Below, piece after piece: positions 148 to 62,052 of a stretch of DNA of 64,000 nucleotides (the stretch's first letter is position 1; each line of letters opens with the position of its first letter). Where the stretch lies: IMG/VR virus record IMGVR_UViG_3300031784_000003; one strand, 5' to 3'. Below the pieces are notes generated by a model that worked only from the letters and a program-made list of their open reading frames with translations, was not told the origin of the DNA and made no database searches. Position numbers and translations under genes: made by a program. The DNA is from a virus (lineage: Duplodnaviria; Caudoviricetes).

Positions 148-813
148 TTATTTTTTTTCAGTTAAATATTTTTTTATTACCATATAATCTTTTTCTAAAT
201 CAGGTGACAAAGCGGCAGAATGGTAACTAATACCTTCTGAATTAGTATATGTTGTAGAATGCAACGCACTATTAGCTGACACAAAATTAGAAACTAAAAC
301 ATTTTCTTCGTATTTAGATATATTTAAATTAATTGCGACTCCCCACAACCACCCATCTGTTTGAGAATAATCCGAAATTCTACCTGTTAAATCAAACCAT
401 TTTTTAGGTATTATTGGGATTAATGAAAAATGACTATCCCAATTAGATTCTAAAAGGTTAACCTTTACGTAATTAAATTCATTTTCATATTTTTTTAAAT
501 AAATGTCCCAATCTTTAGATAATATTTTACAATCATCTGCTAAACACCACAATAAATTACCATTTGACATTTCAGATAATTTATTAAAATAGAGATGTAA
601 ATTTTTATAAAATAACCTTTCAAAAAATACGACTTTAATATTGTTTTTATTTAATATAAAAGTATTTAAAAAATTTATAGTTTCACTATCATCATTATCT
701 ACACCTAATATAATTTCGTAATTTGCTTCATCACTAGCATTATCAATAATTGAATTTAATGTTATTTCTAATTCATTTATTTTAGATCTCGTTGGAAATA
801 TAATACTTATCAT
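148..813 (-). CDS. GT2-like glycosyltransferase
   Basis: MISIIFPTR start, EIILGVDNDD, WCLADD (DXD-like). Confidence 0.65.
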   Translation of the reverse strand: MISIIFPTRSKINELEITLNSIIDNASDEANYEIILGVDNDDSETINFLNTFILNKNNIKVVFFERLFYKNLHLYFNKLSEMSNGNLLWCLADDCKILSKDWDIYLKKYENEFNYVKVNLLESNWDSHFSLIPIIPKKWFDLTGRISDYSQTDGWLWGVAINLNISKYEENVLVSNFVSANSALHSTTYTNSEGISYHSAALSPDLEKDYMVIKKYLTEKK

Positions 814-23437: not shown

Positions 23438-23496
23438 AATAAAGTTTTTTTATATAAATATATCGTAATTCTAAATATTTATTTTAAAATAAAGTT

Positions 23497-26403: not shown

Positions 26404-28542
26404 ATGAGAAACAATGTACAAAAATATTATCCTTTTGAAATAAAAGTAAATACGAATATTGCTGGGTCTAGTGGTATTGGTAAATTTAAATTGGGTGTTA
26501 CTTCTTCGTCTGTACCAAAATATAGGTATTATGTTGATTGGGGTGACGGTAATTTAAGTGCCTCCACATTATCAACACCGTTAACTCATACTTATTCATC
26601 AGTTGGTGTATATAACGTTAAAGTTTATGGTCGTTTTGATAGTATATTTTTTAATGGTGATTTAGATGGGCAAAAAGTTTTAGAAGTTATAAGTTGGGGA
26701 AATATTAAATGGAGATCATTTTCGTCAAGTTTTTTTGGTTGTCCTAATTTATCTGCCATGACATCCACACCACCCATTTTAGAAAAAATAAATACTATCC
26801 CTTATTTTAATCAAGTGTTTAAAGATGCATCAAACTTTAATTCAGATATAGGTTCATGGGATGTTTCGAAAATTATCACTACAGGAAGTATGTTTTGGAA
26901 CGCAGCAAGTTTTAACAACGGAGGATCTCCATCCATATCTGGTTGGTCAACATCTAATATTGCTTTTATGTCAAACATGTTTACCAATGCATCTTCATTT
27001 AATCAACCTATAGGTTCGTGGGATGTTTCTAACGTTGTTGATATGCAACAATTGTTTAATGGCGCATCTTCATTTAATCAACCTATTGGTTCGTGGGATG
27101 TTTCTAATGTTACTGATATGGTAGCTATGTTTAGTAATGCAACTACATTTAATCAACCTATAGGTTCATGGAATGTTTCTGGTGTTACAAATATGGGAGG
27201 TATGTTTGGTAATGCATTTGCATTTAATCAACCCATAGGTTCATGGAATGTTTCTAATGTTACTACTATGGTAGGTATGTTTAGTAATGCAACTACATTT
27301 AATCAACCTATTGGTTCATGGGATGTTTCTAATGTTACTAATATGGATGCTATGTTTGGTACCGCAACTGCATTTAATCAAAATATTAATTCATGGGATG
27401 TTTCTAATGTTACTACTATGTCTAATATGTTTGGTAATGCATTTGCATTTAATGAACCCATAGGTTCGTGGGATGTTTCTAATGTTACTACTATGTCAGG
27501 TATGTTTTTTGCCGCTATAACATTTAATCAACCTATAGGTTCGTGGAATGTATCAGGTGTTACTAATATGGGAGCTATGTTTAGTAATGCTTATGCATTT
27601 AATCAAAATATTAATTCATGGGATGTTTCTAATGTTACTAATACACAACAAATGTTTCAAGGTGCAACCGCATTTAATGAACCCATAGGTTCGTGGGATG
27701 TTTCTAATGTCACTAATATGTCTCTGATGTTTAATAGTGCTATAGTATTTAATCAAAATATTAATTCATGGGATGTTTCTAATGTTAATACTATGCAACA
27801 AATGTTTAATGATGCAACTACATTTAATCAACCTATAGGTTCGTGGAATGTATCAGGTGTTACTAATATGTCATATATGTTTGCTTCTGCAAATGCATTT
27901 AATCAAAATATTAATTCATGGGATGTTTCTAATGTTAGTTTTATGTCAAATATGTTTACGAATGCAATTACATTTAATCAACCTATTGGTTCATGGGATG
28001 TTTCTAATGTTACTACTATGGCATATATGTTTAGTAATGCGACCTCATTTAATCAACCTATAGGTTCATGGAATGTATCAGGTGTTACTAATATGGGTTT
28101 AATGTTTTATTCTGCACAATCATTTAATCAACCTATTGGTTCATGGGATGTTTCTAGTGTTACTAATATGCAATATATGTTTGCTGGTTCATTATTATTT
28201 AATCAACCTATAGGTTCGTGGAATGTATCAGGTGTTACTAATATGTCATACATGTTTGAAAATGCAACCTCATTTAATCAACCTATAGGTTCATGGGATG
28301 TTTCTAATGTTACTAATATGAGTAGTATGTTGAATATGTCTAATATTAGTGTTACCAATTATAATGATATTTTAACTGGATGGACAGGATGGAATGGAAT
28401 TACTGCAACTAAAACAGTTAAACCAAACGTAGTTTTTGGTGCACAAGGAAAAAATTATTCTGCAGGTAGTGCAGCCGCAGACGCAAGAAACTATTTAATA
28501 ACAGTTAAGGGGTGGACAATAACAGACGCTGGAGGAATATAA
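26404..28542 (+). CDS. BspA-like/DUF285 repeat surface protein with N-terminal PKD-like domain
   Basis: [15 protein letters not shown] (PKD-like), then about 20 x 25-aa [19 protein letters not shown].. repeats. Confidence 0.9.
26836..28350 (+). repeat. About 20 tandem 75-bp coding repeats (DUF285)
   Basis: Recurrent TTTAATCAACCTATAGGTTCATGGGATGTTTCTAATGTTACT core at 75-bp spacing. Confidence 0.9.
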
Positions 28543-48717: not shown

Positions 48718-51567
48718 ATGGCATCAACAGACAGAATTTTTGTGAGTCCTGGGGTTTTTACTTCTGAAAAGGACTTAACATTCGTAACTAGACAAGTTGG
48801 GGTTACTACATTGGGTTTATTAGGTGAAACACCTAAAGGTCCAGCGTTTGAACCAGTCTTCATTTCTAATTACGATGAATTCATTAGTTATTTTGGTGGG
48901 TTAAATCCTGAAAAATTTAAGGCTAATGGTTTTAATAAGTATGAATTAAATTATATTGCAAAATCATATCTAACCCAAACTAATCAATTATATGTAAGTA
49001 GAGTTTTAGGTTTATCAGGTTATAAGGCAGGAAATGCTTGGTGTATCACATTAGATTCATCAGCTGACCCATCTACTACGGCTATTACTAATACAACATC
49101 TTACGCACTTTTATTAACGTATTCTGCTACAACTGCAGGTACACCAGTTTCAGTGACATTCAACTCACCTGTTTTAACATCACTTTACAATGATGGACAA
49201 ATTGATGGGTTATTTACTTCGGTAGGGTTACTTAGTGTAGGGGATAGTATTTCAATCACTGATCCAGAATATGTAAAAACAGGATCTAGTTTTAGTGGTG
49301 CTACTTTTGATATGGAAGTTATCACTAAAGGAAGTGGTGGTTCGGGATATGTAACAGGAACAACTAGTGGTACTGTTGTCACATACACTGCCTCTGCTTA
49401 CGCAGATATTGATGGTAGTGTTATCGCTACTTTAAGATCTAGAGCTTCTTATGATGGTACAGAAACATTAACATATGAAGTAACTGGTGCAACTGATACA
49501 GTTATGACAAATACTTCGTTTATTACATCTGATCCATTAGCATCATTTAATATTACAGGTACAACTTATAATGGTAACACCTTCAACTATGAAGTTTCTT
49601 TAGATAGAACTAAAAAGAATTTCTTACCGAGAGTATTTGGACAATCTACACAAGATAAAGAAACAGAATTATTCGTTGAGGAAATTTATGGAAATGTATT
49701 AGAAGATTTAATAAGTGCTGGTAAAGTAAGAGGATTAGATACTTCATTTGTAAACATTGGTTCTACAACTACAAATAACTTAAATAACTATTTAGAAGGT
49801 TGGAAAACTGCAGTATCTCCTTGGGTTCTTTCAGAAGTAAAAGGTACAGGTGCAGGATCGACATTACAAAGATTATTTAGATTTGTAACAATATCTGATG
49901 GTAACACTGCAAACAAAGATGTTAAATTTTCAATTATAAACATTCAACCAGATAATAAAACATTTGACTTATTAGTAAGAAAGTATGGTGATACGGATGC
50001 AAATCCTAACATAGTTGAGAAATATTCATCACTTTCTATGGACAGTAATTCAAGTGGATATATTGCTAGAAAAATAGGTACAACTGATGGAGAATTTCCA
50101 TTAAGAAGTAAATATATAATGGTAGAACTTTGGGACGGTAACGATCCAGATTTAGGAAACCACTTCCCTGCAGGGTTTGAAGGTTTCTTAAATAGAACAT
50201 ATATTGGTTCTAACAGAACGGCATTACCACCAAAAATAGAATATAAAACACAATATAACGATTTCAACACATCTAAATTAAGAAAAACTTATTTAGGTTT
50301 AAATAGTGATATCGGTGTGGATCAAGACTTCTTTAATTATAAAGGTGTAAATGCAGTTAACAATGGTGTTTACACAGGAAGAACGGCAGGATTCCACTTA
50401 GATGTTAACGCAACTAATTCATTAATCGATTTAGGTTCTGAAAGTTATGTTCCTACACTACAAGTTGGTATATCAGCATTTACTACAGACCTTTCTTTAA
50501 TAGGTGGTCCATATGAAAAAGTGGCAGCGAGAAAATTCACATTCACATCTTATGGTGGATGGGACGGATGGGACGAATACAGAACCAAAAGAACTAACGG
50601 TGATTCATACACTAAGGCAGGAACAAAAGGAGCATTAGGTTTATCTAAAGGATTATTTAATACATTTGTAACTTCTGAAGGTGATGAAGGTATTACTTCT
50701 GATTACTACGCATTTTTAAATGGTATATATACTTATAACAATCCTGAGGCAGTAAATATTAACGTATTCGCAACACCAGGTATTGATTTAAGAGATAACA
50801 TCAGTTTAGTTGAAAATGCAGTTGACGTAATAGAAAACGATAGAGCGGATTCATTGTATATTATTACAACACCAGATGTTGATTCAGATGGTTTAGCAAT
50901 ATCTGCAGATGAGGCAGTATCTATAGTTGAGGATTCTGGTATCGACTCAAATTATTCCGCTACATACTGGCCTTGGTTACAGATGGTAGATAGTGAAAAC
51001 AATAGATACGTTTGGATACCACCAACAGTAGAAGTTGTTAGAAATATCGCATTAACAGATAACGTAGCGTTCCCTTGGTTCGCAGCAGCAGGTTTAAACA
51101 GAGGTACAACTACCGCAGTTAAGGCTAGAGTAAAACTTAAATTAGACGATAGAGATGATCTTTACGCTGGTAGAATTAACCCTATGGCAACATTCTCAGA
51201 TGTAGGTGTGGTGATATTTGGTAACAAAACATTACAAGTTAGAGAAAGTGCACTTAATAGAATAAACGTAAGAAGATTATTACTACAAGCAAGAAAACTT
51301 ATTTCCGCAGTATCTATCAGATTACTATTCGAACAAAATGATGCGGTTGTTAGAAACCAATTCCTAAGTTTAGTAAACCCTATTTTAGATAACATCAGAA
51401 AAGAAAGAGGTTTAACTGATTTTAGAGTAACATTAGACGATACACCTGAATCTATTGACAGAAATGAATTAAATGGTAGAATTTTTATTAAACCTACAAG
51501 ATCATTAGAATTTATCTCAATAGAGTTTAACATTACTAACACAGGTGCAAGCTTTGATAATATATAA
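48718..51567 (+). CDS. Contractile tail sheath protein (T4 gp18-like)
   Basis: SPGVFTSEKD, GETPKGPAFEP, YWPW, WFAAAGLNRG, INPM, GNKTLQ, LNRINVRRLL, LFEQND, FIKPTRSLEFI. Confidence 0.96.
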   Translation: MASTDRIFVSPGVFTSEKDLTFVTRQVGVTTLGLLGETPKGPAFEPVFISNYDEFISYFGGLNPEKFKANGFNKYELNYIAKSYLTQTNQLYVSRVLGLSGYKAGNAWCITLDSSADPSTTAITNTTSYALLLTYSATTAGTPVSVTFNSPVLTSLYNDGQIDGLFTSVGLLSVGDSISITDPEYVKTGSSFSGATFDMEVITKGSGGSGYVTGTTSGTVVTYTASAYADIDGSVIATLRSRASYDGTETLTYEVTGATDTVMTNTSFITSDPLASFNITGTTYNGNTFNYEVSLDRTKKNFLPRVFGQSTQDKETELFVEEIYGNVLEDLISAGKVRGLDTSFVNIGSTTTNNLNNYLEGWKTAVSPWVLSEVKGTGAGSTLQRLFRFVTISDGNTANKDVKFSIINIQPDNKTFDLLVRKYGDTDANPNIVEKYSSLSMDSNSSGYIARKIGTTDGEFPLRSKYIMVELWDGNDPDLGNHFPAGFEGFLNRTYIGSNRTALPPKIEYKTQYNDFNTSKLRKTYLGLNSDIGVDQDFFNYKGVNAVNNGVYTGRTAGFHLDVNATNSLIDLGSESYVPTLQVGISAFTTDLSLIGGPYEKVAARKFTFTSYGGWDGWDEYRTKRTNGDSYTKAGTKGALGLSKGLFNTFVTSEGDEGITSDYYAFLNGIYTYNNPEAVNINVFATPGIDLRDNISLVENAVDVIENDRADSLYIITTPDVDSDGLAISADEAVSIVEDSGIDSNYSATYWPWLQMVDSENNRYVWIPPTVEVVRNIALTDNVAFPWFAAAGLNRGTTTAVKARVKLKLDDRDDLYAGRINPMATFSDVGVVIFGNKTLQVRESALNRINVRRLLLQARKLISAVSIRLLFEQNDAVVRNQFLSLVNPILDNIRKERGLTDFRVTLDDTPESIDRNELNGRIFIKPTRSLEFISIEFNITNTGASFDNI

Positions 51568-51615: not shown

Positions 51616-51900
51616 ATGAAAATTAGAAAAAACGGACAAACAATCACTCTATCTGAATCAGATATGAAAAGAATTGTAAAAAAATTATTAAGAGAGGAAG
51701 CTGATCCTAAAGAAGATTTAGTTGTATGTTGTAAAACGGCAGGTATTAAACCACCTACATCATGTTTATCAGGAGACTATGCTAAATGTTTAGAAGAAGT
51801 AGGTAAAGTAATTATGACTGATCCTATTGGTGAAGGTATGAAGGCTATTGCAGCATTAAATTGTCTTAAAGAAAAAGCTAATTCACCAATTAAAAGTTAA
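51616..51900 (+). CDS. Small Cys-containing protein with LSES leader
   Basis: ITLSESDMKRIVKKLLREE. Confidence 0.65.
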   Translation: MKIRKNGQTITLSESDMKRIVKKLLREEADPKEDLVVCCKTAGIKPPTSCLSGDYAKCLEEVGKVIMTDPIGEGMKAIAALNCLKEKANSPIKS

Positions 51901-51929
51901 TAATATTAAAAAAAAATAAATAATAGAGT

Positions 51930-52352
51930 ATGAAAAAAAGGATAGTTAGACTAACTGAATCTGATTTAAGAAGAATAGTTAAAAGAGTAATCAGAGAAGA
52001 TATGGGAGGAATGGACGATGTTCACCCTACTTATGGTAACGTTAACTTCAATGAATTAACTAGAGATCAAATCTTAAATTTAGGTAAGGATAATGATGAT
52101 GATGAATACTACGGTACATTTGATGATACATATATGGTAGATAAAAATGATAGACCTGGTAAATTTGATTATTCGGATTTTGAAGAAGAGGAATTTTCGG
52201 ATTTTGATTCATATAGAAAAAGTAAATATGGTAGAGATCCTAAAAACAAATGGGATTTAAATTCACCTGATGAAGATCAAGGCAGAAGATTTTTTAACGC
52301 ATATCAAGAAAAATCTGGCGGAAGACCTTTTAAAGTAAGAAGGAGAAGATAA
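51930..52352 (+). CDS. Acidic protein with LTES leader
   Basis: MKKRIVRLTESDLRRIVKRVIRE. Confidence 0.7.
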   Translation: MKKRIVRLTESDLRRIVKRVIREDMGGMDDVHPTYGNVNFNELTRDQILNLGKDNDDDEYYGTFDDTYMVDKNDRPGKFDYSDFEEEEFSDFDSYRKSKYGRDPKNKWDLNSPDEDQGRRFFNAYQEKSGGRPFKVRRRR

Positions 52353-52368
52353 GTTATTTTTAACACAT

Positions 52369-52396
52369 AAAAAACCCATCATTGATGGGTTTTTTT
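52369..52396 (+). terminator. Intrinsic terminator
   Basis: AAAAAACCCATC-ATT-GATGGGTTTTTTT. Confidence 0.85.
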
Positions 52397-52419
52397 ATTT
52401 AGTTTAAATATTTATAATT

Positions 52420-55400
52420 ATGAATAGATTATTTTCAGAAAAAGAAGTTAAAAAATTAAAAAATTTTATAGGTAAAAGTCTAATTACTGAACAAGGTGTA
52501 GGTAGAAGACTTGCAGATGCGTTAGAAGACGCAACATCTGCCGTTTCTAAGGCAATTAAAAATGTTGACCCAAAATTAGCCACAAACTTTTTAAATACTG
52601 AGATTAAAAGTTTTGATGATATTTCAAAACATTTAAACGATTATAAATCTATATGGAAAGCTATGGGTATAGATTGGGATTATACGAATAAGGCAATTAC
52701 AAATTTTAAAAAATGGTCAGATACTGGATTTTTAAAAACCGCAGATGAAAAGTTAATTTTACAAGTTATTAATGACTTACCAACTGAAGGGGATTTAAGA
52801 GGGATTGTTTTTGACTTATGGAAAAAAAGTAAGGGTACATACACACCAAAAAAACCTAAATCTAAATCTGTTGTTGTTAAAAACAAAAAAACTGGACAAA
52901 ATATAATTCAAAAAACAGAAAACAATCAAGTAAAAAATTATGAGGTAGATAATAACGGAAAATTATCTGAAATAAGTGATTCTGAATTAGATTTAGAACT
53001 AGATTCTAAAGAAAAACCAGAACAAGTTGCGGGTGTAAAATTGGATGACATACCAAAAGATGAATGGGATATTATTGATGCGTCATTTAAAAAATATGGT
53101 TTTGAAAATGATTGGGGTTTTGACCCTAACACAGGAGAACCTGTATATGTTATATTGCAAATAGGTGGAGAAAAAGTAAAATTTAGTTTAAATAAATATG
53201 GTCCTGAAGCATATGATAATCTTAAAATTAGTGATGATAATTTAATAGAAAAATTTAATGATGAATATGAAAAAACTTTTGAGAATACCAGTTGGATGGA
53301 TAAACCATCTAGGGAAGATTGGGTTAAAAAAGAAAAAATATTAAAGGACCCTAAATTAAGGGAAAAATATGTTAATAGATATGATGTTTCATTAGGTGTT
53401 AAATTGTGGGCAGATGAACCTAATGGTGACTGGGGTATTTGGGTTATCGCAAACCCTACAGAAATAAAAAATTATAGGAAAACAATCACACCAGAGGATT
53501 TAAAAAATGCTATATTACATACAGTTTATCACGAATTGACTCACGTTAAACAAAAACCTGGTCAACATAGTAATTTATCGTATGGTTCTGGCGAATTTAA
53601 AACTACTGAACATGCTTGGACTTATTTAAATTTTAAAAGAGATAAATCCACTAAAAGATATTCTTTTGATGAAAAAGAAATATTTAACTTTTGGGCATGG
53701 CATAAAGAAGATCCTGTTAAAGCGGAAGAACTTATTGCAGATTTTGGTGACGAAAAAGGGATTGACACTAGTTTAGATTATAGTTGGAGAGACGATTTTT
53801 ATGAGTGGGGGAAAGAAAAAAATATTTTTGACGAAAAATTTATTACAAAAAATAAAATTAAAAAACAAATTGATTCATATACTTACAAAAGAAACCTTTT
53901 TAGTGATGACGTTAAAGTAAGATCATTAAAATTGAGTATTGATAGATTTTCTAAAAGTGATAGTAGATTTAAAAAAATAAAAGAGACTACAGATAATTTA
54001 AACGATAAAGAATTTTTAAAATTTATAAATGATAATATTAATATACCTGAAATTGAGAAGGTTGTAAATGATGCTGCATATGAATTGAGTTATTGGAGTA
54101 ATGTTAAAGAAATAGAAGCCGAATTTGGGGCTAATATTAAAACTTTAATGGAATTAGGTACTTTAGAAAAAAATAAAGGTTTTGCCACTTTCTTAGTGGA
54201 TTATTTAAGAGGTACAAATAAATCTCAAAAACTGGCAGATATTGATGTAGCAAAACAAAAAAACTATATGGATACTATGCATCCTATGGTAAAAACTGTA
54301 AAAAAAATAGATAGTAGTGTAGATTCATTAATAGAATTTTTCAAAACATATATAAATAAATTTTTAAATAAAAATGTTACTGATAAAGTAAAATTAGAAA
54401 AAGAATTAACTGATGTAGGTGAGTGGGTTAATAATATACCTGAAGATTTTTTCGCAGTATTAGGAAAATTAGAAAACAGATGGAAAAAGGTATACCCTGA
54501 ACAAGCAAAAAAGATTGAGAAGGATTTATATAAACAGGCATACAATTTAATTTCTAAAGGTTATCCAGCGTTATTACCATTTATTGTTAGTGGTTTATCT
54601 GATGATGAAACTGAAGATAATAAAAATAAAAATGAATCTATAGTTTATAAAAAACATTATATAACTGAATCTTTTAAAAAAACTTATTCATTCGATTGGG
54701 ATGACAATATATTAAAAATGCCAACGAGAATTCATTTAGAATATAAGGTTGGTGGTTTACACTGGGTACCAGTTTCAGTGTCTACAGAACAATTTAGATC
54801 CATTAGACATAAAGTAGGGACAGAATTTAGGTATTTAAATGACAATGTATTAGACGCATTTAAAGATTTTAGAGAATATGAATCATTTATTAGAGATGTT
54901 AAATATGCGTTAGACAGTAGAAATTTTGGGCCTAGTTTTAATGACTTTAAAGAGGCGTTAATTAATGGTGAAGATTTTTCTATTATAACTGCGAGGTCAA
55001 ATTCACCCCTATCTTTAATTGATGGTATTAAATTATTGATAGATAAAAACTTTTCTTATAGAGAAAAAGATGAGATGGAAAAAAATCTTAATGGTACATC
55101 AATCAATGACTATCTTAAAATTCAAGATTATCATCCAGTATCTTCAAAAGAATTTTTAAAAAGTTTTAATTTAGATTTAAGTGGATCTAATCCTGAAAAA
55201 GGTAAAGAAATCGCCTTCAGAAGTTTTGTTGACCGTATAGTAAAACAAATAGACAATATAATAGACGATCCTAATTTTGAAGGTATAAGTGTGGGCTATA
55301 GTGACGATGATTTAAAAAATTTAGAGATAATAGAAAATTTAATTAGAAAAGAATTGAGTATGAAATACCCTAAAATAAAATTTAATGTCTATGACACATC

Positions 55401-55446
55401 TGACCCAAATAATCCGAAAAAGAAAAGAATTGTAATAGAAAAATAA
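52420..55446 (+). CDS. Multidomain protein: leader + shared 125-aa module + HExxH metallopeptidase-like + HAD-like domain
   Basis: LITEQ; YHELTHVKQ; later KEIEAE; ITES then FDWDDN (HAD motif I), IITAR (II), GYSDDD (IV). Confidence 0.7.
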   Translation: MNRLFSEKEVKKLKNFIGKSLITEQGVGRRLADALEDATSAVSKAIKNVDPKLATNFLNTEIKSFDDISKHLNDYKSIWKAMGIDWDYTNKAITNFKKWSDTGFLKTADEKLILQVINDLPTEGDLRGIVFDLWKKSKGTYTPKKPKSKSVVVKNKKTGQNIIQKTENNQVKNYEVDNNGKLSEISDSELDLELDSKEKPEQVAGVKLDDIPKDEWDIIDASFKKYGFENDWGFDPNTGEPVYVILQIGGEKVKFSLNKYGPEAYDNLKISDDNLIEKFNDEYEKTFENTSWMDKPSREDWVKKEKILKDPKLREKYVNRYDVSLGVKLWADEPNGDWGIWVIANPTEIKNYRKTITPEDLKNAILHTVYHELTHVKQKPGQHSNLSYGSGEFKTTEHAWTYLNFKRDKSTKRYSFDEKEIFNFWAWHKEDPVKAEELIADFGDEKGIDTSLDYSWRDDFYEWGKEKNIFDEKFITKNKIKKQIDSYTYKRNLFSDDVKVRSLKLSIDRFSKSDSRFKKIKETTDNLNDKEFLKFINDNINIPEIEKVVNDAAYELSYWSNVKEIEAEFGANIKTLMELGTLEKNKGFATFLVDYLRGTNKSQKLADIDVAKQKNYMDTMHPMVKTVKKIDSSVDSLIEFFKTYINKFLNKNVTDKVKLEKELTDVGEWVNNIPEDFFAVLGKLENRWKKVYPEQAKKIEKDLYKQAYNLISKGYPALLPFIVSGLSDDETEDNKNKNESIVYKKHYITESFKKTYSFDWDDNILKMPTRIHLEYKVGGLHWVPVSVSTEQFRSIRHKVGTEFRYLNDNVLDAFKDFREYESFIRDVKYALDSRNFGPSFNDFKEALINGEDFSIITARSNSPLSLIDGIKLLIDKNFSYREKDEMEKNLNGTSINDYLKIQDYHPVSSKEFLKSFNLDLSGSNPEKGKEIAFRSFVDRIVKQIDNIIDDPNFEGISVGYSDDDLKNLEIIENLIRKELSMKYPKIKFNVYDTSDPNNPKKKRIVIEK

Positions 55447-55517
55447 ATTTTTTAAAAAATACAATATTTATATAATAAATAATACAACTAATAAAAAGAA
55501 ATTAAAAAAAAATTAAG

Positions 55518-56006
55518 ATGGCTGATTTATTAATGAGAATGCCTGTTCCTTACGAACCACTAAGAAAGAATAGGTTTATTTTGAGATTTCCAGATGAATT
55601 GGGAATTCAAGAATGGTGGGTATCTACAACTAGCCGACCAAAATATACGAGTCAAGAGGTGGAGATACCTTTTTTAAATACTTCTACATATGTGATTGGT
55701 AGATTTAACTGGGAATCAATCTCTGTAACTTTTAGAGACCCTATCGGACCTTCTGCGACACAAGCATTAATGGAATGGGTTCGTTTACACTCTGAAACTG
55801 TAACGGGTAGACAAGGTTATGCTGCGGGATATAAAAAGGACGTAGAGTTAGAAATGTTAGACCCAACAGGTGTAGTAGTTCAAAAATGGATTTTACAAGG
55901 AACTCAATTAAATGATGTGGATTTCGGTGGATTAGATTATTCATCTTCTGATTTGGCAGATATCACTGCAACACTTAGATTTGATAGAGCAATTAACGTA
56001 TTCTAA
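55518..56006 (+). CDS. Tail tube protein (T4 gp19-like)
   Basis: YEPLRKNRFILRF, WESISVTFRDPI, GYKKD..L.MLDP.G..VQKW.L.G, TLRFD. Confidence 0.9.
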   Translation: MADLLMRMPVPYEPLRKNRFILRFPDELGIQEWWVSTTSRPKYTSQEVEIPFLNTSTYVIGRFNWESISVTFRDPIGPSATQALMEWVRLHSETVTGRQGYAAGYKKDVELEMLDPTGVVVQKWILQGTQLNDVDFGGLDYSSSDLADITATLRFDRAINVF

Positions 56007-56027
56007 TTTCATATAAAACTTAAATAT

Positions 56028-56056
56028 AAAAATCCCATTATTCAATGGGATTTTTT
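56028..56056 (+). terminator. Intrinsic terminator after tube gene
   Basis: AAAAATCCCATT-ATTC-AATGGGATTTTTT. Confidence 0.85.
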
Positions 56057-56107
56057 GTTTTTATTTAATATTTATTTATTAGAATAATTATATATAATAA
56101 AAAAATT

Positions 56108-57199
56108 ATGGCAAGAAAAATTTTAAATTTAAATGAAGAATTAAAAAGGATAAAATCTTTATTTACTGAAGAAAGAATGTATGGTAATCTTAATGAAGAT
56201 GTATCTGAATGTCAGTGTGAAGACCCTAATGGTGATCTATACGGTAAACTTAATGAAGAAACGGGTCTATGTGATCCTGAGTTATGTGAATCAGAAGGAG
56301 ATGATGATAATAAATCCACATCAGGCGTTCCCTCAGGTTTTATTGAATTAACGTCATCTAAGAAAAATGAAATAGAAAATGATGAAACAGATTCAATTAA
56401 ATTTTATGAATCAAAACAAGTGGGTGGTAAAACATATGTGAAAAGAATGTCTTTTGAAAAAATAAAACAAAAAGTAGGATATATTGATAAACCAAAACCA
56501 GGAAGAGATATGGACTACGTAAAAAGAAAAATAAAAGACGATAAAGGTGTACCTGTAGAAATTTATATCTCTAAAGATGGTGAATTAAACTTCATGACAA
56601 AAAAAGAAGGTAAAGCAATTAGAAAAGATATTAGTAAAGATGTAAAACAAGATAAGGGTGTTATCGATGATAATATAGATAGTTGTAAAGAACATCTTAA
56701 AGCTATGTATAAAGCTTGGAAAAAGGGTGCTGGTCCTGGTGAATTAGAAGATTTTGGGTTTGAGGCAGATGCATATAAATCTGTTGAAAGATGTATGGCG
56801 AATTTCTATAATAGATTTGAAAAAGATGATGGAGTATTTTCTAGAATTGGAGTTGGTAGAGAGGATATAATGCAAATGGTTAAATCTTTTCAAGACGATG
56901 ATTTAGTTGGTGATTATAGAAGTGGAGAAGGTCAAGTTCAAAAAGGTGTAGAAGGTGAAAAATATACGGTTGAAAATGCTAGAGGTACTAAATTAGGTGT
57001 CATAAAGAAAAAAACAGGAAATCAGTATAAATTTAATGGTGTAAGAGGATATATATTTATAGAAAAAAGAAATGGTGTTTTACAATTTAAACCATTTGTT
57101 TTAGGTCCAATTTTTAAAGCGTTAAATTTAAATGTTGATACTAATAAAATAACGGTAATCGAAGGTGGAGAAAATAACGCATTATTTAGAGTTAAATAA
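56108..57199 (+). CDS. Hypothetical protein with LNEE..FTEE leader
   Basis: LNLNEELKRIKSLFTEERMYGNL, shared with 59890 gene. Confidence 0.7.
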   Translation: MARKILNLNEELKRIKSLFTEERMYGNLNEDVSECQCEDPNGDLYGKLNEETGLCDPELCESEGDDDNKSTSGVPSGFIELTSSKKNEIENDETDSIKFYESKQVGGKTYVKRMSFEKIKQKVGYIDKPKPGRDMDYVKRKIKDDKGVPVEIYISKDGELNFMTKKEGKAIRKDISKDVKQDKGVIDDNIDSCKEHLKAMYKAWKKGAGPGELEDFGFEADAYKSVERCMANFYNRFEKDDGVFSRIGVGREDIMQMVKSFQDDDLVGDYRSGEGQVQKGVEGEKYTVENARGTKLGVIKKKTGNQYKFNGVRGYIFIEKRNGVLQFKPFVLGPIFKALNLNVDTNKITVIEGGENNALFRVK

Positions 57200-57201
57200 C
57201 T

Positions 57202-59049
57202 ATGAGTAAAAAAATTTTCATAACAGAAAGTCAATATAATAGAATTTTTAGTGGTGACAATTTTTTATTTGAAGCGGATGATAAAAAGGATGCTGAAAAT
57301 GCTAAAAAATTTTTAAGAAGTATTGGTTGGCCTAACGATATAATAGGTGGATCGTTATCACAAAATCATGTTTTTGCACAATCAGTATTAAATGCATTAA
57401 AGCAATTAAATAATGTTTATATTGCAGAAAAGGTAATCACTGGTACTAAGGGTAAATATGATGTTTGTATCTCTAAACCAGGATTAGGTACTTGTAATGT
57501 TGCGGCTGGAGGTAGTCTATATGCAGCAAAAGACTTTAGTGATTTAGCAAATAAAATTTCTAATAAGACTATTGGTGATAATAGGGCTTCTGATATCGCT
57601 AACAATGACACAGTATACTTTCAATTCGGTAAATTACAAAATGAATTAAATACGGCTTTCAAATATGATAAATATGCTTGGAAGTCAGAATATTTTCCTG
57701 ATGGGTGGTGGAATTTTTTTAGTACATATTTTGGTACAGATAATTATACACAAATAAAAAATAGAATACAAAAAATCCAACCTTATAATATTAATTACAA
57801 TAAAAGTACTTTAAATCAATATGAAAAGGGTACTAGTCTTTGGAATTACATATCAGATTGTTTTACTGATTTTCATTGTGCGATGGATGTTGCCTCTATT
57901 GCGGTTTTAGCAATACCAGGAGTTGGAATGGCTTTAAGTGCGGGTATAGACTTTGCAAATGCAGCCACATATGGTGTTGATGCGTATAACGCAAAAACAA
58001 AAGAAGAAAGAGACGCTGCAATTATTGCAGGTGGATTAACTCTTTTTGGTGGATTTTTAGGTGGTGGTATTGGACAAACAAAAAGAATTTTAACTAAAGG
58101 TAGTGCAAATCCAAAAGTTTATAGATATGCTGATGATGTCATTAAGAGAATCGATGACGAATTACCATTACTTAGAGATGTAAAAACTAATGTAAAAAAC
58201 CAAAAATTAACAACCATTTATAAAGAAACTGCCGAAAAATATGGATTAAAAGATTCAGAAATATTATTAGGTCATGATATTATAGATGATTTCGCAAAAA
58301 TTGATCCTAAAGTTGCAAAAATTTATAGTGATGCTTTAACCACTATAGAAAGTAAGATAGGTAGGGCTAATTTATTGACAGTTGCTAAAAATAAAAATTT
58401 TAAAAATCTTGTCTTACAAAATAATGGTGATGTTGTAACATCACTAAAAGCGTTTATGAAGACTACTGCAGGTAAGGAGGCATTACAAGAATTAGGGATG
58501 TTTGTAATTCTTTCAGAAGTATTATCTGAACCAACAGTTGCAAAATGGTTAAGTGATAAAATTAATCTAATACAACATAGTTTAAAACCAACTGTTCAGA
58601 CTACTATTAAAAATGATGGTTATGATTGGAAGACAACTAAAGAAATATTTTTTTCTGATGGTTCTACTAAAGATAATACTTTACTTTTAAAGGCATATGA
58701 AAAAGGTTGGAGACCTTGGACTAAAAGTGAAGAATTACCAAATGAAGAGGAGATGCAAAAATCTAGAGAGTGGTTATCTAAAAATCCTAGTTTCCAAACT
58801 AAAAAATTTAAAGATTGGTTGTCTACACAAGCTTCTGAATTAGGGAAAGAAAGTCTTAGTGGTAAAGAATCTTTAGGTGTAGAAATGACACCTGTTGACG
58901 CAAAAGACAGAAAAGAAAATGTGAGGTACGCTGATACTAAAGAAGAGATGGACGCTTTAAAACCTGGGATAGATGATGGTAAAAGTGGTGAGGAGGCAAT
59001 AGATTTGTTAGATAAACAACTAGAAGAATATTTAAAAAGTCAAAAATGA
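57202..59049 (+). CDS. Protein with ITES leader and pre-toxin-TG-like hydrophobic segment
   Basis: IFITESQYNRI; H..MDV..IPGVG..ID.ANA..Y..A..GG segment. Confidence 0.6.
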   Translation: MSKKIFITESQYNRIFSGDNFLFEADDKKDAENAKKFLRSIGWPNDIIGGSLSQNHVFAQSVLNALKQLNNVYIAEKVITGTKGKYDVCISKPGLGTCNVAAGGSLYAAKDFSDLANKISNKTIGDNRASDIANNDTVYFQFGKLQNELNTAFKYDKYAWKSEYFPDGWWNFFSTYFGTDNYTQIKNRIQKIQPYNINYNKSTLNQYEKGTSLWNYISDCFTDFHCAMDVASIAVLAIPGVGMALSAGIDFANAATYGVDAYNAKTKEERDAAIIAGGLTLFGGFLGGGIGQTKRILTKGSANPKVYRYADDVIKRIDDELPLLRDVKTNVKNQKLTTIYKETAEKYGLKDSEILLGHDIIDDFAKIDPKVAKIYSDALTTIESKIGRANLLTVAKNKNFKNLVLQNNGDVVTSLKAFMKTTAGKEALQELGMFVILSEVLSEPTVAKWLSDKINLIQHSLKPTVQTTIKNDGYDWKTTKEIFFSDGSTKDNTLLLKAYEKGWRPWTKSEELPNEEEMQKSREWLSKNPSFQTKKFKDWLSTQASELGKESLSGKESLGVEMTPVDAKDRKENVRYADTKEEMDALKPGIDDGKSGEEAIDLLDKQLEEYLKSQK

Positions 59050-59234
59050 TAGTTTTAGAAATACAAAAAAAAATAGATGATATAAAAAATAGGTTAGATG
59101 AAATTAATAATCTATTTGATATTTATAATATAAATGATGAAGAAAGTATGAATTATTTTATTAATGAAATACAATCTTATAAAGAAGAATTAAAAAAAAT
59201 AAGTGATGAAAAACTTAAAAGAACAAATAAGTAG
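59046..59234 (+). CDS. Small coiled-coil hypothetical protein
   Basis: ORF track; ATGA overlap with upstream gene; overlaps next gene by about 30 bp. Confidence 0.4.
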   Translation: MIVLEIQKKIDDIKNRLDEINNLFDIYNINDEESMNYFINEIQSYKEELKKISDEKLKRTNK

Positions 59235-59877
59235 AATAAAAAATCTAATGTTATTATCTGAACAATGTGGCACTGATTTAAATCAATGTGAAGAAGATTT
59301 AGAAAATAAAGGATATAAGGTTTTTAGTCCTACTGAAAGTAAAAATATTTGTGACGATAATGAAAACATACAATGTTTAGAATCATCATTCTCATCATTA
59401 AGTGGAAAATTAAGTGTTAGTTCTGCAGGAAACTCTGTTAAAGATTGTTTTGTACTATTAAAGAGTAATCATCAAACAATGGGAATACCAACGTTTCATT
59501 TTACTTTTTATTCTGACGGTCAAGTCGTTTTATCATTTTTATTAAATGAAAATAATGATAAAAAGAAATTAGTGTATAGATCTAAATATGAATGTAGTGG
59601 TGGTTCTGTAGATATTAAAGGTGGTGCGGGTTTTAAATATATTGGTGTTAAGTCAGGAAACGTAGTTAAGGCAGAAAATATAACTTTTATTAATGATAAT
59701 AATAACAATGTTGTACTTAATGATGCTCAGGCAGTTAAAATGGAACTTAAAAGTGGAGAATTAAAATACCAAGATGTTTTAACATATTATATGAATAGAG
59801 CTGGATTATATACAGGAAATGTTTTAAATAAAGGATTACCATATAATCAAATAGTGGCATTATTAACTCATACATAA
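59203..59877 (+). CDS. Hypothetical protein with LKEQ..LLSE leader
   Basis: MKNLKEQISRIKNLMLLSEQ. Confidence 0.7.
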   Translation: MMKNLKEQISRIKNLMLLSEQCGTDLNQCEEDLENKGYKVFSPTESKNICDDNENIQCLESSFSSLSGKLSVSSAGNSVKDCFVLLKSNHQTMGIPTFHFTFYSDGQVVLSFLLNENNDKKKLVYRSKYECSGGSVDIKGGAGFKYIGVKSGNVVKAENITFINDNNNNVVLNDAQAVKMELKSGELKYQDVLTYYMNRAGLYTGNVLNKGLPYNQIVALLTHT

Positions 59878-59889
59878 AAAAAAATAAAT

Positions 59890-62052
59890 ATGAAAAAAAG
59901 ATATACTAATTTAAATGAAGAAGTGAATAGAATTAAATCTCTATTTACTGAAGAAAGGTTATATGGTAATTTAAAAGAAAATAAATTATTAACTGAGCAA
60001 GGTATAGGTAAAAAACTTGCAGATGCGTTAGAAACTGCAAGTTCTTCTGTTTCTAAGGCAATTAAAAATGTTGACCCAAAATTAGCCACAAATTTTTTAA
60101 ATTCAGAAATCAATACTTTTGATGACTTAGCGAAACATTTAAACGATTATAAATCTATATGGAAAGCTATGGGAATTAATTGGGATTATGCGAATGACGC
60201 AATTTTATCATTTAAAAAATGGTCAGATACTGGATTTTTAAAAAGTGCAGACGATAAATTAATTTTACAAGTTATCAATGATTTACCTGTGGAAGGTGAT
60301 TTAAGAGGTATGGTATTTGATTTATGGAAAGATAGTAAAGGAAAATATACCCCACCTAAATCAAAAAATCAGACTACTATTGTTAGTAAATCTAATAAAG
60401 GTGAAAATGTTATCCATAAAGTAGAAACTGTTGGTGGTAAAGAAAAAATTGAGACTTACTCAATAGAGAGTGATGGGATTAAAAAAGATGACGGTTACGA
60501 CCCAAATAGGGCTAGTGAAGAAGTTAATTCACATTTTGATGGGGATGATTTAGTTTCTGGTGGAGGAAGTAGTAAAATCACTACTGATGTGTTAAATGCT
60601 AAAGGTAATCCAGATAATATAAAAGGTGAAATTATAAATGCTATTGAGGAAGGATTTAATAAAATATCAGGTAGAGGTGGTAAACAAATGACTTCTGATG
60701 AAATTGTTGAACAGATTAAAAATGGGGGAGTTTTAATGGTAAAACGATCTGATGGTTCTTATAGAGTAATAAATACTATAGAATTAATAGAAATGGAAAT
60801 AGATCAAAATTTGGATATAACTAACATAAAAAGTATTGGTAAAAAAGATGTAACACCACCAGTTAATGTTCCACCAGTTAAAGATGGTGGTGAATCAGTA
60901 GATGTACCTACAGACGGTGGTAGAAATGGAAGTAAAAAATCTAAAAATAATTTTTCTTCAAATATTGGTAACATAATTGGACAAGGTTTCAGATATGTGT
61001 TCCCAACAGTTAGTGAAATATTAAAACGTGTATCTTTATTAGGTCCAGGTAGTAAATTTTATTCTAAACAAAGATTTAGTATTGTCGATTCGAGATTTCC
61101 AACAGAAGGAGGTTATAATAAACGAGCTAACAAGATTTTGAAGGGTTTGTTGGAAAACCCTGCAAGAATATTGTTTGTAGAACAAACTGCTTTAATTACT
61201 ATTGTTGGTATAGCAAAATCAATCGAAAGAGGAACACTACCTAAAGATGAAGAAGCTATAAATACTGCAATTGCAGATTATAAGAATAGTGAAATATGGA
61301 AATACAGTGTACCGTATTTATTAGCGGGTACACTTGCCGATGTCTATCAGAGGATTATTAATTTAAGAAAAATTAGTTACGCTTCTTGTAGAAGTAAAGC
61401 AGAAAAAAAATTAAATCCTAATGATCCTCTTTATGAAATAAAGAAAAAGGAAGTTGAAGTGGAAATTGAAGCGTGTAAAGATGAGGTAGACTCATTTTTT
61501 GATAAAATTGATGCTTTTGGAAAAGACTTTACTAAATTTAAAAAAGAATTTGCCGACCTTAGTAATATAGATCAATGGGATCAATCAAAAATAGAAAAAT
61601 TTTGTGAAGAAGATTTAGCGGATAAACAAGAGGTTTTGAAAAATTTGAGGGTTAGTTTAACTAATTTAGATGATGAAATAAAAAATCGATTTAATACAGA
61701 TGACATTAAAAAAAGAGAATATATTGTTACTATAATTAATACTTTGAAGAACGTTATGCCTGCGTTACCTGAATTACCTACTCCAGAAGAAGTAATTAGT
61801 CAATTAATGCCTAAAACGGAAATTAATGGTAAAAAAATAACCCCTTTAGATATACAAGGGTTAGAAACTAAATTAAACGCAGCATGTGCTGAATACTGGA
61901 ACAAAAAAAGAGATGTTCAAGATCAAATAGTTGATCCAGATGATTATGAACAACCAATAGATACAATTAATGTTGACCCTGACACTAAAGAAAGTTTAGA
62001 CGCAGATTTTGGTATGATAGAAGTAATTGTAGAACCAATAGAAATAGTTTAA
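59890..62052 (+). CDS. Mosaic protein: 56108-type leader + 52420-type 125-aa module + unique C-terminus
   Basis: LNEEVNRIKSLFTEERLYG, then LLTEQGIGKKLADALE...; hydrophobic stretch in C-terminal half. Confidence 0.7.
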   Translation: MKKRYTNLNEEVNRIKSLFTEERLYGNLKENKLLTEQGIGKKLADALETASSSVSKAIKNVDPKLATNFLNSEINTFDDLAKHLNDYKSIWKAMGINWDYANDAILSFKKWSDTGFLKSADDKLILQVINDLPVEGDLRGMVFDLWKDSKGKYTPPKSKNQTTIVSKSNKGENVIHKVETVGGKEKIETYSIESDGIKKDDGYDPNRASEEVNSHFDGDDLVSGGGSSKITTDVLNAKGNPDNIKGEIINAIEEGFNKISGRGGKQMTSDEIVEQIKNGGVLMVKRSDGSYRVINTIELIEMEIDQNLDITNIKSIGKKDVTPPVNVPPVKDGGESVDVPTDGGRNGSKKSKNNFSSNIGNIIGQGFRYVFPTVSEILKRVSLLGPGSKFYSKQRFSIVDSRFPTEGGYNKRANKILKGLLENPARILFVEQTALITIVGIAKSIERGTLPKDEEAINTAIADYKNSEIWKYSVPYLLAGTLADVYQRIINLRKISYASCRSKAEKKLNPNDPLYEIKKKEVEVEIEACKDEVDSFFDKIDAFGKDFTKFKKEFADLSNIDQWDQSKIEKFCEEDLADKQEVLKNLRVSLTNLDDEIKNRFNTDDIKKREYIVTIINTLKNVMPALPELPTPEEVISQLMPKTEINGKKITPLDIQGLETKLNAACAEYWNKKRDVQDQIVDPDDYEQPIDTINVDPDTKESLDADFGMIEVIVEPIEIV

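Follow-up and report, generated by a model that had tools for sequence, protein, structure and literature searches.

A 64,000-nucleotide stretch of the caudoviricete virus record IMGVR_UViG_3300031784_000003 (the whole of which is called the window here) encodes, between its tail sheath and tail tube genes, a protein of 1008 amino acids (aa), named P0001, in which five parts follow one another in a single 116-kDa polypeptide: an N-terminal leader, a swappable N-module, a hub domain carrying an HExxH motif, a linker, and a HAD-like C-domain. Comparison with relatives strongly supports a history in which the C-domain was once a separate, leader-bearing gene that was later fused to the hub, and by the same alignments the ITES motif inside the P0001 linker is a fossil of that gene's leader. 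From this architecture we infer, at what we judge to be an even chance, that P0001 is a late polyvalent precursor of a T4-like giant phage, targeted by its leader and packaged in the head, where the prohead protease would cleave it behind E24 and E750 and from where its parts would be ejected with the DNA.

The open reading frame (ORF; 52420-55446, + strand) had been singled out in an earlier annotation made from the DNA letters alone (the original prediction), and it was recovered here together with all of the motifs named at the time, from LITEQ (aa 21-25) to GYSDDD, each at its expected position (Table 1), including the order in which a short stretch, GYPALLPFIVSGL, precedes ITES, which in turn precedes the HAD-like motifs. 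As a whole, P0001 found no match in Pfam, PHROGs or PDB sequences. The N-module is shared with the ORF at 59890, as had been noticed; the length of 125 aa then given to the shared module did not hold, with the likeness spanning 181 aa at 63% identity (BLASTP, E 4e-70). At least three versions of the N-module occur in our family alignment A1 (18 homologues, 29-81% identity).

Table 1. Features of P0001 and of its surroundings in the window.
Feature	Residues (aa)	Position	Strand	Remarks
N-terminal leader, L-I-T-E then Q25	1-24	52420..52491	+	candidate capsid-targeting/cleavage tag; E24 and Q25 nearly invariant
N-module	25-184	52492..52971	+	helical; common to the 59890 ORF; replaced by unrelated modules in homologues
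Hub domain (~520 aa)	203-725	53026..54594	+	zincin-like core, then helical bundle; AlphaFold2 model m091cc41db6ef
HExxH (HELTH; H371, E372, H375)	371-375	53530..53544	+	invariant; inside model helix aa 358-377
K-E-I-E-A-E	563-568	54106..54123	+	E564/E566 invariant, candidate third metal ligands; start of helix aa 562-580
GYPALLPFIVSGL	714-726			position verified in P0001
Linker	726-754	54595..54681	+	acidic/basic, predicted disordered; holds invariant N-E-S (738-740) and I-T-E-S (748-751)
ITES	748-751	54661..54672	+	leader fossil of standalone C-domain gene; candidate prohead-protease site, cut after E750
C-domain, HAD-like (254 aa)	755-1008	54682..55443	+	four invariant motifs
C-domain motif I, FDWDDN (D759-x-D761)	758-763	54691-54708	+	
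C-domain motif II, IITAR (T857)	855-859	54982-54996	+	
C-domain motif III, K929	929	55204-55206	+	
C-domain motif IV, GYSDDD (D962-D964)	959-964	55294-55311	+	
720-aa paralogue		59890..62052	+	N-module behind double (tandem) leader
Tail sheath gene		48718..51567	+	phrog_23, E 3.3e-60
Tail tube gene		55518..56006	+	phrog_4542, E 1.3e-25
Terminator-like hairpin		52369..52395	+	ends the upstream 51930 gene; 12-bp stem, then T run
Terminator-like hairpin		56028-56055		3' of tube gene

The C-domain descends from a separate gene

Queried with aa 752-1008, the C-domain matched 184 proteins, nearly all of about 272 aa, and a profile search returned 1342 matches that were again almost all of this length. 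The domain occurs at more than 582 IMG/VR loci, and at 80 of them we read the ORFs: 70 were about 270-320 aa long from the first ATG and kept motif I, and are therefore taken as standalone genes. Most of these standalone ORFs open with a leader of 20-35 aa, of the type M-K-x-K-[LI]-T-E-S-Q-Y-K-L-L-x-E-F, which directly precedes Y-S-F-D-W-D-D-N, and the genes start five residues ahead of T-E-S. The original prediction had proposed that P0001 arose from once-separate genes and had suggested looking in relatives for the HAD part encoded alone, from a start near ITES; such leader-bearing genes do exist and bear out the proposal. Like the P0001 gene, the standalone gene sits between sheath and tube, in marine as well as freshwater relatives.

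Within P0001, the internal Y-I-T-E-S-F-K-K aligns to the standalone leader, minus the seven residues Q-Y-K-L-L-K-E, and leaders retained internally are found in three fused forms (the P0001 group, the P0015 group, and L033). In the P0015 group (P0015, P0017, P0019, P0020, P0022) the whole leader is kept internally and the same leader type also stands at the proteins' own N-terminus, while L033, a third and very divergent form whose hub is 26% identical to that of P0001, retains the fossil Met of the standalone gene. Hub proteins without a C-domain exist as well (P0012, P0014, P0154-P0161), and the tube gene comes immediately downstream of the gene for P0014. Evolutionarily, loss of an upstream stop codon would have joined the C-domain gene to a hub gene, whereupon the leader of the former would have become the linker. 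Because the P0001 group has lost the helical part of this leader by deletion but still has T-E-S, the cut motif rather than the helix appears to have been selected, and we regard this as the strongest of the sequence arguments for selection on the motif.

A possible natural split of the gene, P0013 and P0034 on contig L003, was considered and rejected, since what separates the two is a frameshift, caused by a single base missing from the A-run coding for the invariant K753-K754. This A-run (L003 8255-8270) is longer than that of the window yet one A short of the in-frame length, and the frameshift splits the gene into ORFs of 764 and 242 aa, the latter without motif I. The missing base could stem from a sequencing error, mark a genuine null allele, or reflect DNA prone to slippage. 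In the window, an A7 run (54674-54682, the K753-K754 codons and the next base) falls exactly at the joint between hub and C-domain.

Two conserved candidate cut motifs and a linker predicted to be flexible

Triplets of the form [IL]xE occur 11 times in P0001, against 12.3 expected from composition, and since this number equals chance, the triplet alone is uninformative. Conservation in A1 sets two of the 11 apart: 16 of 17 sequences have LITE24 and 18 of 18 have I-T-E750, the remaining nine being kept in 1-11 sequences each, so that ITES is the sole internal [IL]xE that all of the family retains. These are the very two sites, LITE and ITES, that the original prediction had flagged, and because conservation is limited to them, both are likely under selection. 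Structurally, our AlphaFold2 (AF2) model of the hub and linker (aa 195-760, built on 33 sequences) is otherwise confident, with a predicted local distance difference test score (pLDDT) of 77.8 and a predicted template modelling score (pTM) of 0.70, whereas aa 725-760 (model residues 531-566) have pLDDT <50, and the linker around ITES is accordingly predicted to be disordered. The linker is acidic first and then basic, and variable in A1 apart from N-E-S and I-T-E-S; such a motif, conserved while its surroundings are exposed and flexible, has the features expected of a protease site.

The same linker could instead be a flexible tether in an uncleaved two-domain enzyme, a single 116-kDa polypeptide, packaged or not, with I-T-E-S as an inherited remnant or as part of the N-terminal helix of the C-domain. 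Precedents for such a protein are the N4 vRNAP, ArdC and TraC1, which are delivered unprocessed despite their MPTase domains (PMC5512222). Moreover, in the giant phage SPN3US, self-cleavage of the protease removes a C-terminal propeptide and the other mapped cuts remove or fragment N-terminal propeptides, so that all mapped cuts remove terminal propeptides and none parts two mature domains (PMC10052503); the low information content of the motif also fits a remnant. However, E750 is invariant in a linker that is otherwise variable and disordered, and the P0001-group deletion took the helical Q-Y-K-L-L-K-E and spared T-E-S, which leads us to treat an uncleaved protein as a possibility of clearly second rank.

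Leaders, prohead protease, and the proposed route into the capsid

Leaders related to that of P0001 stand on unrelated bodies in the ORFs at 51616, 51930, 56108, 57202, 59203 and 59890, and are absent from the sheath, tube and baseplate-hub genes of the window. Together with the P0001 gene at 52420, these + strand ORFs surround the tube gene (window 51616-62052), and their leaders are basic, N-terminal, and carry [IL]-[TSN]-E.

The processing machinery was read in a relative, G005 (IMG/VR, 127 kb), that carries a standalone C-domain gene. G005 encodes a protease of the T4 gp21 type (Peptidase_S77, E 9e-27). It also has a capsid protein of the gp23 type (Gp23, E 8.5e-63), in which the N-terminal part has the sequence A-L-L-T-E|A-T where the T4 maturation site would lie; A-L-L-T-E|A is thus predicted to be the maturation site of this capsid protein, and T4 gp23 is matured at the corresponding place, L-T-E|A. 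The scaffold protein of G005 likewise holds P-I-T-E-S and L-N-E-S. A capsid gene was absent from five further IMG/VR fragments. As a separate observation, the scaffold-like protein of G005 (L096 7-1260), encoded upstream of the capsid gene, has several Y-G-G-N-K-G-D-E-S-R-S-H-R-D-Y-M-E-E-G-E repeats in its very acidic N-terminal half.

Mechanistically, the leader would bring the precursor into the scaffolding core, where the T4 gp21-type prohead protease would cut after E24 (LITE|Q) and E750 (ITE|S), with an additional cut after E739 (KNE|S) possible. In T4, an Asp at P1 is known to block processing. The products, a hub fragment of ~80 kDa and a phosphatase-like enzyme of ~30 kDa, would be free in the capsid, and both would be ejected with the DNA. 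More tentatively, in a 'polyprotein cargo' system of this uncultured T4-like lineage, the leader that targets the capsid may at the same time be a universal joint that the protease can cleave, and the HExxH hub would carry changing passengers (a HAD-like phosphatase, a kinase-like domain and others) to be delivered with the DNA; fusion and splitting of leader-bearing cargo genes would then be unconstrained, since inside the capsid the prohead protease would turn every fusion into separate enzymes again.

A zincin-like hub with changing passengers

The hub family is small, with 24 representatives among 1.8 billion clustered proteins, and has no match in Pfam, PHROGs or PDB sequence profiles. 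Its residues H371, E372, H375, E564 and E566 do not vary even among members with only ~25% identity, and for the two last this holds in all family members, including P0154-P0174. In the AF2 model (model numbering), helices 104-123 are followed by three strands (124-150) and the HExxH helix (164-183), all at pLDDT 83-95, then by an insert of ~185 residues and a helix (368-386) that opens with E-I-E-A-E; in P0001 itself the strands (aa 318-344) precede the HExxH helix (aa 358-377), and E564 and E566 lie at the start of a confident helix (aa 562-580). Based on the invariant HExxH and ExE residues and on this order of secondary structure, we consider a zincin-like metal site in the hub likely. With respect to the 'HExxH peptidase' of the original prediction, the motif, the ExE pair and a zincin-like order in the model are all present, whereas fold searches gave weak matches only. 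The possible third ligand that it saw in KEIEAE can be narrowed to the invariant E564 and E566, which are candidate ligands.

Foldseek searches of the hub model against PDB, BFVD and both AlphaFold DB libraries returned nothing at E <=0.001, the rows being mostly helical noise, and the top AlphaFold DB row was a weak match to M48 (E 0.12). ESM Atlas gave weak shape matches to DUF2201_N, M78 and YbeY (template modelling score, TM, 0.37-0.57), hub homologues had sub-threshold, motif-level Pfam matches to YgjP-like, DUF6782, SprT-like and BSP, and weak embedding leads pointed to the LPD23, LPD1 and SprT-like families.

Among hub relatives, the C-domain is present, absent, or replaced. P0156 and P0157 have a kinase-like N-domain on the hub (Pkinase, E 2.4e-6, with an H-G-D-L-N-T-N-N catalytic-loop motif), and P0174 and P0159 have other C-terminal domains behind a conserved N-E-[ST]. 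A hub with changing passengers in a late structural neighbourhood is the pattern of polyvalent proteins. Separately, the beta-meander of ~45 residues with which the hub starts (profile positions 32-76, window 53095-53230) has 19 matches in P0169, a 3155-aa metagenomic protein, so this module also exists as a long tandem array.

Given such a hub, the linker might be cut at or near N-E-S / I-T-E-S by the embedded zincin-like peptidase itself, in the capsid or after ejection, which would set the passenger domains free. The architecture of hub and variable passenger is consistent with this, for MPTase domains, for instance in P1 DdrB, Iyer et al. propose release by autoproteolysis (PMC5512222), the invariant N-E-S adjoins the hub even in members without a C-domain, and the embedding leads to LPD23, LPD1 and SprT-like families agree. 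On the other hand, the conserved motif is exactly of the [IL]-T-E type seen at the capsid and scaffold sites of the T4-type protease, it comes from the N-terminal leader of a gene without a peptidase of its own, and the peptidase fold is a prediction with weak fold matches. On balance, we think self-processing rather unlikely, and favour cleavage by the prohead protease.

The C-domain as a probable HAD-like phosphatase

Functionally, the C-domain is quite probably a HAD-like phosphatase. In an alignment of 24 C-domain sequences (A6), which includes megaphage homologues at 33-41% identity, D759-W-D761-D-N, I-I-T857-A-R, K929 and S-D962-D-D follow one another in the canonical HAD order and are invariant or nearly so, with N in motif I in place of T/V. 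Feature neighbours in the ESM Atlas carry DUF2608, Acid_phosphat_B and HAD_SAK_1 (scores 0.89-0.91, 177 shared features), and the wording of the motifs resembles that of Escherichia coli AphA. The 'HAD phosphatase' of the original prediction therefore stands as far as its four motifs, their order and their invariance go, and finds no counterpart in profile or fold matches.

The C-domain shows 65% identity between subgroups whose hubs share 27-34%, and because this conservation is far above that of the hub, it suggests an invariant substrate, for example nucleotides or nucleic-acid ends, and not a fast-evolving host protein. The megaphage homologues lack the T-E-S leader. They are encoded at L001 5944-6999 and L010 1438-2520 (LR745206, LR756502) in uncultured phages of 630-735 kb, and two of them have a C-terminal extension of ~80 aa, one with a weak MazE-like match (E 3e-4).

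Evidence against the proposal and a possible role in the tail

Several observations weigh against the interpretation of P0001 as a packaged and cleaved precursor with a phosphatase-like end. The protease and the matching capsid site were read in one relative, G005; the P0001 leader is 24 aa long versus ~10 aa in T4; the gene is located in a block of tail genes; and [IL]xE is a low-information motif. Regarding the C-domain, HAD families were absent for up to 59 members of its family in Pfam, NCBIfam, PHROGs and PDB profiles (the last with alignments A3 and A6), and hhalign comparisons of the family with AphA alone or with an 80-sequence AphA alignment aligned motif I alone (P 0.04-0.075). The single-sequence AF2 prediction of aa 735-1008 was poor (pLDDT 48), and placed a low-confidence beta-hairpin directly behind motif I. 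A search for cultured relatives by tblastn against 50,697 phage records matched only five unannotated huge-phage assemblies. Further searches that gave nothing were a Pfam scan of the C-domain family for HAD families (25 members, two megaphage ORFs and 10 divergent members), a look for a Pfam-annotated bridge to HAD among the near relatives listed of the 1342 profile matches, and a comparison of the DUF2608 model with two megaphage records, in which no match was relevant; tblastn starting from the megaphage homologues returned the same five records.

The location of the gene leads to the last alternative, in which the leaders would be helices that serve assembly or interaction in late proteins, either tail-associated or non-structural, and the gene would lie between sheath and tube because it acts in or around the tail: this position is conserved across marine and freshwater relatives and the unusual conservation of the C-domain (65% vs 27-34% for the hub) fits a core function, but the known tail proteins of the window have no leader, the leader ends in the motif of a relative's capsid-protein maturation site, and enzyme-like motifs are unexpected in structural parts of a tail, so we regard this explanation as improbable.

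Comparison with known systems and implications

Relative to the head-internal cargo of T4 (IPI, IPII, IPIII and Alt, processed by gp21), P0001 is alike in having a short N-terminal leader that ends in [LI]-x-E and occurs on unrelated cargo, in belonging to a lineage with a T4-type protease and capsid protein (as read in G005), and in its enzyme-like content, Alt being an ADP-ribosyltransferase that gp21 trims at both ends (PMC9026906, PMC3012670). In T4 itself, the capsid targeting sequence has the form of a propeptide of ~10 residues, with residues 4 and 7 controlling targeting and residues 8 and 10 controlling processing, and the authors of PMC9026906 suggest that the tag may be the way in which T4-like phages load diverse proteins into the head. 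In contrast, the P0001 leader has ~24 aa to the 10 of T4 and is borne by a 116-kDa multi-domain protein known from sequence alone, and the proposed internal site, which would part two enzyme-like domains, is undescribed for T4 cargo.

Polyvalent proteins (Iyer, Burroughs, Anand, de Souza, Aravind 2017), such as P1 DdrB and the N4 vRNAP, share with P0001 the late-gene context, a hub with changing passengers (kinase-like, HAD-like and others), presumed delivery with the DNA, and, as in the MPTase core described in PMC5512222, an HExxH helix and a Glu helix separated by a variable insert. The differences are that no Pfam MPTase or LPD model matches P0001, for which there are weak embedding leads only; that its hub is a small, lineage-specific family (the 24 representatives above); that P0001-type joints carry prohead-protease-type motifs derived from gene leaders; and that a HAD domain is not among the polyvalent-protein domains named in the passages of PMC5512222 consulted.

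The ejection proteins of phiKZ-like giant phages (SPN3US gp53/gp54 and others) are similar in that protease-removed propeptides occur on many head-internal proteins, some of them cut several times, and in forming paralogous families, whereas the cut proposed for P0001 would part two mature domains. For the C-domain, the closest comparison is the class B acid phosphatase AphA and HAD subfamily IIIB ('DDDD' phosphohydrolases), whose motif grammar it shares: F-D-[IW]-D-D-[TN]-[VI]-L, [FI]-[VI]-T-[GA]-R-S, a Lys, and D-S-D-N-D versus S-D-D-D. It differs in the lack of a significant profile match, in much larger inserts between the motifs of the C-domain, and in setting, AphA being a periplasmic enzyme and the C-domain protein a cytoplasmic or virion phage protein.

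Thus, P0001 unites the capsid-targeting cargo of T4 with the architecture of polyvalent proteins, and would differ from both in a leader-derived internal joint that, as its sequence suggests, would part two mature enzyme-like domains. If this is true, a gene fusion has left an old address tag in place to serve as an internal cut site and lets a single precursor carry two enzymes, and P0001 offers a natural experiment in how T4-type phages enlarge their repertoire of injected proteins. An injected phosphatase and metalloprotease would be candidate early factors in host takeover or anti-defence. In addition, the analysis brings out two families unrecognised by Pfam, PHROG, NCBIfam and PDB profiles, namely the phosphatase-like protein, which is held between sheath and tube in the relatives checked, and the zincin-like hub.

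Genomic setting and transcription signals

The original prediction had placed the gene between those for sheath and tube, and the two do flank it on the same strand; it had also credited the gene with its own terminator and promoter motif, and neither could be upheld. The nearest terminator-like hairpin lies upstream of the P0001 gene and the next one past the tube gene (Table 1), and because of the position of the latter, the P0001 and tube genes are probably co-transcribed on one transcript. As for the promoter, TATAAATA is absent on the + strand ahead of the P0001 gene, and a T4 late promoter there was rejected on this ground. In place of the T4 late-promoter motif, A-A-T-A-T-T-T-A-T-A precedes both the P0001 gene (52406-52416) and the tube gene (55462-55472).

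Elsewhere in the window, TATAAATA stands just upstream of the + strand genes at 23453, 30876, 37919, 40802, 42751 and 62071, and its overall count equals chance (28 observed vs 27.7 expected). Terminator-like hairpins number seven between 51500 and 56200, versus 0.9 expected from shuffles, and three of the seven sit 3' of the sheath gene, the 51930 gene, and the tube gene. Finally, a 712-aa ORF (window 26404-28542) has very strong matches to PHROGs of unknown function (top match phrog_17273, E 3e-163), and since these come in many stretches, up to 16, the ORF appears to be internally repeated.

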